From Pseudovirgaria hyperparasitica (taxonomy: Eukaryota): a stretch of 64,000 nt of DNA. Where the stretch lies: the NCBI GenBank assembly GCA_010093815.1, contig ML996581.1; one strand, 5' to 3'. Made by a program: the position numbers and the translations under genes. Under the pieces are notes generated by a model. It had not been told where the DNA came from and did no database searches. It saw nothing but the letters and a program-made list of their open reading frames with translations. Below are positions 27,194 through 31,613 of the stretch, piece after piece (position 1 is the stretch's first letter; each line of letters begins with the position of its first letter).

Positions 27194-27818
27194 GCCCGTC
27201 CCGTGTAGCTTAGCTGTTTCCATCCCGGAACCCCCCTCGAACCATGCATGGACTTATCTATATGTCTTGTCCATATCACAGCAATATCCTAGGCGTGCAT
27301 GTGCTACTCGTATCGCCATGCGACCTCCCAGTCGGGGATACGATAGAACCGTCACTCTTGCGCGAAACAGGATTCGCTTCCATGCTCTGAAAAACCAGCT
27401 TTGCGATAGCTGAACAGAGCAAGACTACAAAGTCTCAACCCTTGGTTGAGCGGTTGCAAGGGGCCAGAGACGAAAGTCCTTGTCAGGATCCTCTTCCGAT
27501 GCCTTGATGTGTACGTTGAGGATTATATACCCATATTAGCAGCTCTATGTATGTGATTTGAGACTATGTATCAGACCACACCATGAAAGTCACATGTATC
27601 TTATTTTGTGATCGATGACCGTTATGCCTCAACATCAGTATGAACAATGCATCACAATTATCTCTCCAATCTATCTATCTTCTTCTTCTTCGAATTCTCA
27701 CTTCTGCAACTGGAATTTCATAGAACAGACTACCTCTCCATGCATAGCGCGCTGATATGTGGGGTTCTATATCCAGATGAAATTTTGGGGAAACAGTTCT
27801 CCCGTGCCAAGTCTAGCT

Positions 27819-29167
27819 CTATAGTAGCGGGTTGGACCGATACTCGGGCACAACATTGTTCTTGGACGACTTTTCAGCCTGGTTCTCCTTCTCCATATCG
27901 GTGTTTGCTCCAGTGCCGTTAGCCGTAGGTTCCTCTGCTTGCTCTTGCTCCGCAAGCCACTTCTCCGCCTCTAGTGCCGCAATGCAACCAGATCCCGCCG
28001 ACGTGACAGCCTGTCTGTACTTCTTATCCTGCACATCTCCAGCCGCAAACACGCCCTCGACACTGGTCAGCCCGGTACCAGGAGTGGTGACCAAATACCC
28101 GTCCTCGTCCATCTCGAGCTGGCCCTTGAACAGAGCAGTCGCCGGGTCGTGTCCCACGGCGTAAAACAGTCCGTTCGCCTGAATCTCCTCCTCCTTGTTC
28201 GTCTTGTTGTTGACGACTACCAGCGAGCCCATCGTCTTGCCGCCCTTGATCACCTTCGCCTGCGTGTTGTACTTGATCTCCACCTTCGGATGCGTGCTCA
28301 GCCTCCGCGCGTTCGCCTTGCTCGCACGCAGCTGGTCCCTGCGCACCAGTACGGTGACCTTGCTTGCGCGCTTGGTCAGGTAGATTGACTCCTCGACGGC
28401 ACTGTCACCGCCGCCGATCACGACCAGCGGCTTGTTTCTGAATAGCGGGAGGGAGCCGTCGCAGACGGCACATGCGCTGACGCCCGCGTTCCAGAATGTC
28501 TCCTCGCCTTCGAGGTTCAGGCGCCGTGCTTTGGCGCCTGTGGCGATGATTATGGCGTCTGCTGTGTGCTCCTCCTCTTCTAGGGCCTCGTTCTCGCCCA
28601 TGGGGTGTAGCCAGTAGCGGAATGGGCGCTGGGAGAGGTCGACTTTGCCGACAGTGAGGGACTCGATTTTGGTGCCGCAGGCTTCGGACTGTTTTCGCAT
28701 TTCGTCCTATTCGAACATGTCGTTAGCATGGTATGGTGAGTGGGAGCGGATCTGATCTGGTGTGTGTACGTACCATGAGCTTGCCTCCTTGTATGTTCAT
28801 GAAGCCTGGGAAGTTCTCGACCTCATCGGTGGTCGTCAATTGACCTCCGGCAGCGATGTCGTTGGCCATGAAACCTTCGTACATGACAGCTGTGCATAGG
28901 TCAGTCTTTGTGCATTTTCCTGTCTCTGGGTAGACCTACGGTTCAGATCAGCGCGAGCAGCATAGATGGCGGCTGTATGGCCAGCCGGGCCAGACCTATG
29001 GTATGTTAGTACCAGCATCACAAGCCATTCGTTCTTCCCATTCATTCTCTGCACATCGTATGGCGGGGCACGCGACGAACTTACCCGATGACTGCGAACA
29101 ATGTTAGTATCATTCCATGTATTTTCACCTAGCGGGGCATCAACTCACTGACGAGTTTTGAGTGCAT
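27819..29167 (-). CDS. TRR1: Thioredoxin reductase (low-MW type), 5 exons including a 7-nt microexon
   Basis: [20 protein letters not shown]...[18 protein letters not shown], redox motif [38 protein letters not shown]-terminus EYRSNPLL. Confidence 0.96.
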
Positions 29168-29924
29168 ATTGCGCTTTTGTGTGACCCTGGAGGCGAAGGA
29201 AGAAGTTACAGTAGCTGATTTCTTCTGCGGAAATGAAGCTACAGCTGCGAACGGAATGCTTATGGATGCGCGGAGAGGGGTTGCAGCCCTTCGAAAGGCC
29301 GAGGAGAACAGTTTGGCGGTTTAGTGAGTAGTCTTTGGCGCGGTTAGGAAAAAAGTTGTGGATGTTGATTTTTTTCTAGACCCAAAACGATGCGAATGCG
29401 GGATGCTGGTCGGTAGCCGAGCGCAGACAGAAAAGCCCAACGTGAGATGACGTACTTTTGGATGAGGGGTTTCATGCACGATGCGAGTGTTCGTTGAGCA
29501 GAAAGCAAAAGAAGACTGCACAGGGATGGACCTGGGGTTTTGAGGACGTGGCGAGACTACGGATCAGCAACTCTGAGCTGGAAGCATCGGTAACAGTCAC
29601 GCAAGCACAATTGTTGACGATAGATTGACATGTGGTTTTCGCGATGGATGATTTCTAAGGGTTTCCAGCCTGGCGGCACGGGGCGACCTAGACTCTGGCG
29701 ATTCCTGCAGTCTTCGGCGGCGCTCACGGCCGATCCGAAATTAATCCAGCCATTGATTATAAGCAGACCCAGCCCAGATCCCAGGGTGCGTTTCTATCCT
29801 AGGCACAACCTCGAATCGTTCAACTCTCGTGCAGTGCCTATGATGGCATGCTGGCCTTGTGATCGTTACCGTCGGTCCCTACCAGGATGAGACAATGCTT
29901 TCACCCCTGTAGATTGATGTCCTT

Positions 29925-31613
29925 TCACAGTTGCGATTCTTCCCCATACCCACCCCGTTTCCTTAAACTTCGAATGCTATAGACGGTCTCATTGACTTGC
30001 GCGCGGCTTGCCTCTAGAGAACTGTGTCCGTTCGTTTCGGAGAGAGTAGCTCCTATAGCTGGATCTATCTGCCACATCTCACCCAGATCCCGCGACGACT
30101 TTCCAGTAACTATGAAATTTGAGTCCAAAGTGTATGCGCTTAGACGCTCTTTGTGGCTCGTCTCCTGCATTCCCTTGTTAGACGGTATCGGAAAGGGTGA
30201 CCGAGAGACATACTTTGTCCTGTTTGAGACTGTCTGATGACACAACTATCGACTTGTCCATAACGATGAGACAGATGAGATTTCCAGGCAATGATGTAAC
30301 TGCACGCCCGGACACAGTCACAATATCATTGTCGACGCTCATGATGAATGTAAGGAGTGTCGGTACGCCCTCGAGCGCAACTAGGACAAGGTACTATCAT
30401 GACTATCAGTCCATCGACAGCTTCCTTCATATCCTTGAGTGATTGACTTACACGTTGCCGAGGCTCATCATATATCGACCACAAGCCAGATACAGCTATG
30501 TCCACCTCGCCATCTAATCCAGCTTCAACTACAAGGTCTCTCAGATCAAGCTGAGCCAACTTCCTTCCTGCTTTCCAGTCCCAGGCTATGAGGTGATCAT
30601 CACCACCTCCAGATATCAAAACATCAGGAGTAACAAGCAAAAGCTTGCTTACAAACTCGGCATGGCCTAGGCAATAATTTTCGATTATATGAGCCTGAGG
30701 TGGGCCCCGTGAGACCCTTATATGCTCATCTCGGTCCGAAGTAAGAATGTAGTGGCGAAAGTCTCCGGTGTTGCTACTGCCCGTAGTCACAGAGAGAAGG
30801 TCTGTAAGTAGCGAAACGTGACCAAGCAATAATTGATGCTCGAACTTCAATGGCTCTTTGGCATTGGCTACTAGTGCTTGTTTGCGCTGATCCTCAAGAG
30901 CTCTGCGATTCCTGGCAGAATGGACTGTCTTCTCGGATGCAGAAGGCACAAAGGTCTTCTTGGGTTCTTCCGTGATGTTGGAGACAGAGTCGGTCACGAT
31001 TCGTTCTTCGTACTGCAAAGGTATCGCGTAGACGTCGCCAAATTTGTCCCCGCATATGATAGTTCTATTATCGGGAGTCAAGCCGATTGCACACGGTCGT
31101 TTGGGCATGGAACTACCGTAAAATCAGCACGCCGAGGGACAGCTCATGATAGGGATTCAGACCGTTCGCTTAATTCAGATAATCGTCCTTCTGCATCGAC
31201 TCCAAAAACGCGAATGCATTTATCCTCGCCAGTGACAGCAATCAAGTGGGCGCCATCATTCACAGCAACGAGATTAATGATTTTTGGCCGAGCGGCCAGA
31301 TTCATCCCCTTTTCATCTTTTGAGCCAGGCTGCTCGTCTTCCTGTCAAAATTTAGCCCGCCATCACCTATACCTCGCTTCTTAGCAACTGTGCAGGAGGA
31401 CAATGCAGATCATCTCCAAAGATTAGACTGGCTTACAGGTTCTTTTGTGTCCTCTAGTGGCCAAGTTGAAACAATGTGGCCAGTTTTGATATTCACTGTA
31501 AGTATCTGCGGACCACTAGCGGCAAACAGAATGTTACGACGAAACAAACCCCCCTCATCACTACTGGGTTGCGTGACGCCAAAGGTAGCGAGACATTGGA
31601 ATGGATGGTGCAT
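29925..31613 (-). CDS. TRM82: tRNA m7G46 methyltransferase non-catalytic WD40 subunit, multi-exon
   Basis: MHHPFQCL start; MPKRPCAI...CGDKFGDVY, LLGHVSLLTD, ILTSDRDEHIRVSRGPPQAHIIENYCLGH; C-terminal YSIRSLRKR. Confidence 0.9.

Follow-up and report, generated by a model that had tools for sequence, protein, structure and literature searches.

Filamentous fungi are described as having one, cytosolic thioredoxin reductase (TrxR), and the TrxR gene of Pseudovirgaria hyperparasitica raises the question of whether a single gene of this kind could serve the mitochondria as well. We analyzed a window of 64,000 nucleotides from contig ML996581.1 (assembly GCA_010093815.1), where a preliminary description had proposed, from the letters of the DNA, that translation beginning at a CTG codon upstream of the usual start adds a mitochondrial presequence to the enzyme. 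The features on which the argument depends are listed in Table 1.

Table 1. Features of the TrxR locus and its 5′ leader (positions are those of the window)
Feature	Position	Strand	Details
TrxR coding sequence	27819..29167	-	361 aa, five exons, splicing seen in contigs
TrxR coding introns, four GT-AG	29148-29092, 29084-28996, 28939-28890, 28773-28707	-	spliced translation and contigs
Main ATG	29165..29167	-	A at -3; begins the cytosolic form
48-codon N-terminal extension	29168..29311	-	predicted to be a cleavable mitochondrial presequence, with a basic helix at the N-terminus, an Ala-rich middle and Arg at -2
CTG near-cognate start codon	29309..29311	-	context ACC GCC AAA CTG T, A at -3
In-frame TAA	29321..29323	-	exonic once the leader is spliced; blocks in-frame starts further upstream
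Leader intron, GT-AG	29455-29333	-	123 nt; joint 29332/29456 in contigs of both runs
Upstream AUG and uORF	29260..29475	-	weak AUG (U at -3); out-of-frame 30-codon uORF after splicing; overlaps the CTG

We assigned the protein to the low-molecular-weight thioredoxin reductases on a score of 371.2 bits against TIGR01292 (thioredoxin-disulfide reductase; model positions 2-300), above the curated cut-off of 343.45, and its spliced translation contains CAVC (the CxxC active site), GSGPAG, GGGDSA and FAAGDV, with the FAD/NADPH-binding and CxxC motif definitions taken from PMC6416177. Over the 293 aa searched, the enzyme matches a protein labelled Pseudovirgaria hyperparasitica (P0001) at 100% identity, and the next best matches are Dothideomycete enzymes, at about 65-75%. 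A protein search of the genome (3 of 3 candidate loci scored) returned a single TrxR, and a TIGR01292 profile search (14 of 17 candidate loci scored) returned one strong locus, with a glutathione reductase-like gene as the runner-up at 2e-19; neither search found a second TrxR gene, and the one studied here is the only canonical thioredoxin reductase of this genome.

Our recheck of the region upstream of the main ATG reproduced what the preliminary description had reported, i.e., 51 open codons back to the TAA with no ATG among them, the CTG in its context 48 codons ahead of the main ATG, an extension with 5 Arg, 3 Lys, 9 Ser, 9 Ala, 4 Thr and no Asp or Glu, and an Arg at -2 relative to the main Met. 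An open frame of such length is by itself weak evidence, because 31 of 126 control 48-codon stretches in related leader DNA are likewise open. At least 40 codons are open upstream of the ATG in 101 of 104 eukaryote-like loci among the matches listed, and on this comparison the open frame is therefore non-random. The extension also shows the pattern expected of near-cognate dual targeting, with a good start context and no in-frame AUG or stop before the main AUG.

Whether the CTG is transcribed was read from the contigs of two public runs (X1 and X2, at most one sample), compared with positions 27300-31400. The record does not give the RNA status of these runs, which was judged from the joints: all four TrxR coding introns are skipped, and we therefore take the contigs as spliced RNA. 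The same joints revealed the leader intron, which is absent from the preliminary description. One X1 contig, with a depth of 1557, is unbroken from the coding exons to 29332, beyond the CTG; the joint of the leader intron has a depth of 958 in X1, a crude measure. Spliced contigs cover 29149-29332, thus spanning the CTG, which is therefore present on mature RNA, and an X2 contig extends to 29593, so that the transcript reaches well past 29311, as the proposal required. Contigs of this kind cannot show where transcription begins and may miss rare splice forms, and one X1 contig (29456-30164) runs into the upstream gene.

We considered whether an upstream AUG could be spliced into the frame of the extension. 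The donor at 29455 is used, yet its acceptor at 29333 lies upstream of the in-frame TAA, and therefore this joint cannot bring an upstream AUG into frame. The in-frame AUG at 29587 of the spliced leader meets a stop after 7 codons, and after splicing no AUG stands in frame with the extension. A motif scan for the leader intron in orthologues missed even the branch point of P. hyperparasitica itself and is therefore uninformative on whether that intron is conserved. The AUG at 29475 lies 41 nt upstream of the CTG in the spliced leader and opens a uORF that ends 93 nt ahead of the main AUG; it would divert some ribosomes beyond the CUG, and the uORF may hold down the mitochondrial form in P. hyperparasitica. 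A conserved overlapping uORF is unsupported by the orthologues: among the matches listed, 3 of 44 representatives with enough DNA have an overlapping upstream ATG, at a distance of 138-173 nt measured without splicing, and in none of the 44 does an upstream ATG lie within 88 nt of the start. At 31341 the contigs of both runs depart from the sequence, leaving a loose end whose match lies further upstream, which is probably one more intron of the neighboring gene.

A search of metagenomes with an N-terminal motif pattern, which finds only transcripts or genes without an intron in the motif, identified at least 117 loci, and 90 of 117 carry a homologous extension, among the matches listed, whose consensus opens with K-L-F-S-S-A-F-R-R and closes with R-x-M. 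The 27 loci outside the codon counts comprise 13 that appear prokaryote-like from their sequence, three that reach a contig end (L024, L094 and L096), one that is mis-anchored (L052), and 10 that are divergent. The 90 loci and P. hyperparasitica were clustered at 70% identity into 52 representatives, which are related and do not count as independent events. For the start residue the anchor pattern accepted L, V, T, I or M, with the codon left free.

This analysis demonstrated that the aligned start codon is CTG in 42 of the 52 representatives among the matches listed, GTG in five, ACG in two, and ATG, ATT and ATC in one each. Every Leu at this site is CTG (42/42), every Val is GTG (5/5) and every Thr is ACG (2/2), so that in all 49 of these representatives, among the matches listed, the codon is one base from ATG; elsewhere in the same extensions CTG accounts for 7% of the Leu codons (n=233), GTG for 12% of the Val codons (n=81) and ACG for 9% of the Thr codons (n=254). 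The position at -3 is A in all 51 non-AUG representatives, and the main AUG has a purine at -3 in 52 of 52, again among the matches listed. In the AUG-type cluster there is a U at -3, i.e., a leaky context; this lineage (L002, L054, L056 and L059) has exchanged the near-cognate codon for a true AUG, whereas its close relatives (L004, L017 and L095) retain CTG. The ATC case (L074) is probably mis-anchored; four codons before it stands an in-frame CTG that has A at -3. Given the relatedness of the loci, we regard the changes to GTG, ACG, ATT and ATG as more telling than the raw counts. A leave-one-out nucleotide profile run in all frames, a less circular test than the anchored codon count, gave its highest-scoring site in the frame of TrxR for 51 of 52 representatives, and at the same place for 49, among the matches listed. 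The conservation that the preliminary description had named as a check is thus seen in the orthologues, which keep the frame open and hold a near-cognate codon in an A(-3) context at the aligned site (among the matches listed).

Changes within the extension are of the kind expected of coding DNA. Across 21 close pairs, which share reference sequences, and with multi-base changes treated as non-synonymous, there are 183 synonymous and 148 non-synonymous differences (pS 0.20, pN 0.066, ratio 0.32), and third codon positions hold 215 of the 331 differences. All 10 indels in the extension are multiples of three, compared with 15 of 68 in the 120 nt upstream, a comparison in which the way the loci were anchored constrains the net frame. 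Conservation of the nucleotides dies away over about ten bases upstream of the start site, and an in-frame stop follows within the next 48 upstream codons in 36 of 42 representatives, among the matches listed. By these comparisons the extension is under purifying selection, and the coding signal stops at the start site.

The composition of the extension speaks to its destination. A basic, acid-free N-terminus, an amphipathic helix and an Arg at -2 are marks of matrix presequences cut by the processing peptidase. Among the matches listed, extensions are 41-69 residues long, apart from one mis-anchored case of 28, and 52 of 52 representatives have a net charge of +4 to +8 with 0-1 acidic residues; the P. 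hyperparasitica extension has a net charge of +8 and no Asp or Glu. An Arg lies two residues ahead of the main Met in 44 of 52 representatives among the matches listed, and basic residues make up 18% of the first 18 positions, 34% of the last five and 6% of those between. The N-terminal hydrophobic moment exceeds that of shuffled sequences at p<0.05 in 26 of 52 representatives among the matches listed, and in P. hyperparasitica it is 0.70 (p=0.095), not significant alone. Around residues 13-30 the representatives share an Ala-rich, mildly hydrophobic segment, with a median of 1.49 for the best 13-residue Kyte-Doolittle mean; the best 17-residue mean is 1.21 in P. hyperparasitica and has a median of 1.06. 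An ER signal peptide or transmembrane anchor was considered and rejected, as only 2 of 52 representatives, among the matches listed, reach at least 1.6 over 17 residues. Taken on these features, the extension looks like a predicted mitochondrial matrix presequence.

The near-cognate dual-targeting reading of TrxR is therefore backed by comparison, as distinct from experiment, and on that footing is strongly supported: one gene probably supplies TrxR to both the cytosol and the mitochondria. In the form we favor, with a probability of about 0.86, leaky scanning of one mRNA yields a mitochondrial matrix precursor from the CUG and the cytosolic enzyme from the AUG. Because the codon and its context are conserved, we infer that a minority of scanning ribosomes begin at the strong-context CUG, which would give a 409-residue precursor whose first 48 residues would act as the matrix presequence. 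The matrix peptidase would most likely cut after the conserved Arg-X and leave an N-terminus that coincides with the normal Met or adjoins it. The majority of ribosomes would bypass the CUG and begin at the AUG to make the 361-residue cytosolic enzyme, and the inefficient start codon would hold the mitochondrial share small. In Fusarium graminearum, a TrxR-GFP fusion under its native promoter looked uniformly cytoplasmic (PMC6416177), which limits any mitochondrial form there to a minor share. Non-AUG extended mitochondrial forms are usually scarce (PMC6582344), and the Fusarium pattern fits a small mitochondrial share without showing one.

The same extension could instead sort TrxR, partly or wholly, to the intermembrane space, with the Ala-rich middle acting as a weak stop-transfer signal after a CUG start. 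The segment at about residues 13-30 is moderately hydrophobic and conserved, and yeast Trr1 has been reported from the intermembrane space (review, PMC8069373); however, a 17-residue mean of 1.6 is as rare as given above (2 of 52 among the matches listed), a proline interrupts the hydrophobic segment in 33 of 52 representatives (among the matches listed), and the conserved Arg at -2, at the far end of the extension, fits matrix processing, so that we consider this destination improbable. We give still less room to alternative transcription starts, by which long transcripts would make the long form and short ones starting below the CUG the cytosolic form. Contigs cannot reveal such starts, and some dual-localized Cryptococcus genes combine transcription starts with leaky scanning (PMC7049704), but in P. 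hyperparasitica the contig is unbroken from the coding exons past the CTG, with a joint depth in the leader of 958 against 1557 in X1 (crude). A dedicated long transcript would have no need of an inefficient start codon, the AUG-type lineage keeps its poor context, and even under this explanation the CUG would still be the start.

That the conserved stretch is an untranslated RNA element, an open frame arising by chance, or the trace of an unseen splice from an upstream AUG is an explanation we regard as already largely refuted and scarcely credible. It can draw on the chance-open stretches among the leader controls (31/126) and on the rare splice forms that contigs drop. Against it stand the bias toward synonymous change and the frame-keeping indels, together with the Phe codon after the start, which is divided about evenly between TTC and TTT (26 C and 25 T at +6). 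RNA structure downstream of the CUG, which we also considered and rejected as an aid to CUG initiation, is ordinary (z=0.27, nothing beyond shuffles); the sole leader splice seen has its acceptor upstream of the in-frame TAA; and a model with an upstream exon leaves unexplained why near-cognate codons alone should occupy one aligned site. Leaky scanning from the CUG to the AUG remains the reading that we carry forward.

Near-cognate starts for dual targeting are known from yeast ALA1 and GRS1. For the TrxR family the idea is not new in yeast, as Trr1 has been published as a candidate: Monteuuis et al. (2019) selected it as one of 18 proteins for which a non-AUG mitochondrial extension is predicted, and reported it in the mitochondrial fraction (PMC6582344). 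The preliminary description had contrasted the P. hyperparasitica gene with the TRR1/TRR2 pair of Saccharomyces cerevisiae, one for each compartment; the separate genes stand, but the division is incomplete, with Trr1 itself a non-AUG candidate found in the mitochondrial fraction (PMC6582344). Yeast Trr1 and P. hyperparasitica TrxR thus share an enzyme family and a predicted non-AUG extension with a mitochondrial signal (PMC6582344), whereas yeast also has the dedicated mitochondrial TRR2. In the available text of PMC6582344, no start codon of Trr1 is mapped or mutated and no fungal conservation is shown; the P. hyperparasitica gene, in contrast, is single-copy, with a start site fixed across many filamentous fungi.

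A parallel in design comes from Wallace et al. (2020; PMC7049704), whose DualNCC and DualAUG fungal aminoacyl-tRNA synthetases are single-copy housekeeping genes that combine a near-cognate codon or weak AUG, a presequence and a strong downstream AUG. Exchange between near-cognate codon and weak AUG among lineages is common to TrxR and these synthetases (PMC7049704), but TrxR is a redox enzyme, and the words "Thioredoxin" and "TRR1" are absent from the main text of PMC7049704, as is "thioredoxin reductase" from one supplementary file. Neurospora cpc-1 (Ivanov et al., 2017; PMC5487733) likewise has deeply conserved near-cognate starts in good context, under purifying selection in Pezizomycotina, although its extension is much longer, holds several near-cognate starts and is linked to control by uORFs; the main text of that paper contains neither "mitochondri" nor "thioredoxin". 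Yeast Gpx3/Hyr1 is another antioxidant enzyme that reaches mitochondria through a non-AUG extension, but this is of 18 residues, stress-induced and directed to the intermembrane space (review, PMC8069373), compared with 41-69 residues (among the matches listed) and an Arg at -2 for TrxR. In the literature searched, mostly papers available without subscription, we found no report of a near-cognate TrxR start in filamentous fungi. Conserved near-cognate extensions in Neurospora were reportedly described by Wei et al. in 2013, in work that could already name TrxR. Near-cognate dual targeting is an established mechanism, to which TrxR would add a conserved, mostly unannotated case in filamentous fungi.

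Such a case would bear on an acknowledged gap. A 2025 Neurospora preprint describes a TrxR without an N-terminal signal and a system that "seems to lack a mitochondrial TR", and notes that the predicted localizations would separate TR from mitochondrial TRX3, a discrepancy to be resolved (10.1101/2025.04.24.650474). Relatives of Neurospora, i.e., Immersiella, Akanthomyces and Claviceps, carry the extension motif, and if our reading is true, a conserved CUG-started TrxR would resolve the missing mitochondrial TR. Complementation constructs with a swapped promoter or an AUG start may then have silently lost the mitochondrial form.

Two further genes of this genome (G000) touch the same subject. 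A WCGPC thioredoxin (L129:1089-1286; G000:C16 about 589.5-589.7 kb, +) carries two AUGs in one frame, at a distance of 65 codons and separated by a presequence-like segment; A stands at -3 of each AUG, and therefore alternative transcription starts may outweigh leaky scanning there. A thioredoxin with such a segment would need a mitochondrial reductase, and a mitochondrial thioredoxin partner for TrxR is therefore plausible in this genome. The glutathione reductase-like gene (G000:C5 about 822.7 kb, -; L134 reverse strand about 1665-1810) is without an in-frame upstream AUG and has a CTG (TTC AAA CTG) 35 codons ahead of its AUG, with a basic, acid-free stretch between, and is a candidate, from this one genome, for a second CUG-started presequence. 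It is a speculative and on balance doubtful possibility that the mitochondrial disulfide-reducing supply of filamentous fungi comes entirely from leaky upstream starts in genes whose products are otherwise cytosolic, i.e., the CUGs of TrxR and glutathione reductase and the two AUGs of thioredoxin, the CUG of TrxR being fixed in much of Pezizomycotina and perhaps more widely. If true, start-codon stringency would jointly set thiol-redox capacity, which could be tuned under stress without new transcription.

The taxonomic breadth of the extension can be gauged in part from public gene models. Models that read through the region share the motif in the Dothideomycetes (Stagonosporopsis, Friedmanniomyces and Aureobasidium) and in the Sordariomycetes (the three relatives of Neurospora above); metagenome loci carry no taxon names, and a distribution outside these two classes is presumed from their sequences. 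Long presequence-like frames with a candidate CTG, ACG or upstream ATG are present in divergent eukaryotic loci that fall outside the main motif group (L074, L110, L041, L057, L093, L052, L069 and L092). Among the mis-anchored and divergent loci left out of the codon counts, L039, L052, L069, L092 and L110 carry CTG or ACG in frame, with A at -3, followed by a presequence-like stretch, and L041, L057 and L093 have an in-frame ATG upstream; L085 and L101 have short open frames, and L100 is open to the edge of its sequence. The long presequence-like frames of the divergent loci, which are without taxon names, hint that the dual design predates Pezizomycotina.

The majority of public gene models begin at the downstream Met, and if the CUG-started form is real, most annotations miss a mitochondrial TrxR isoform. 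Two models (P0124 and P0130) fuse TrxR with a neighboring gene through the AUG-less extension, and these fusions are probably annotation errors arising from the open leader frame. Exon 2 of the P. hyperparasitica gene is just 7 nt (29091-29085) and is retained in the spliced contigs, and the public models of four orthologues (P0026, P0027, P0072 and P0088) seem to be mis-spliced around this tiny exon.
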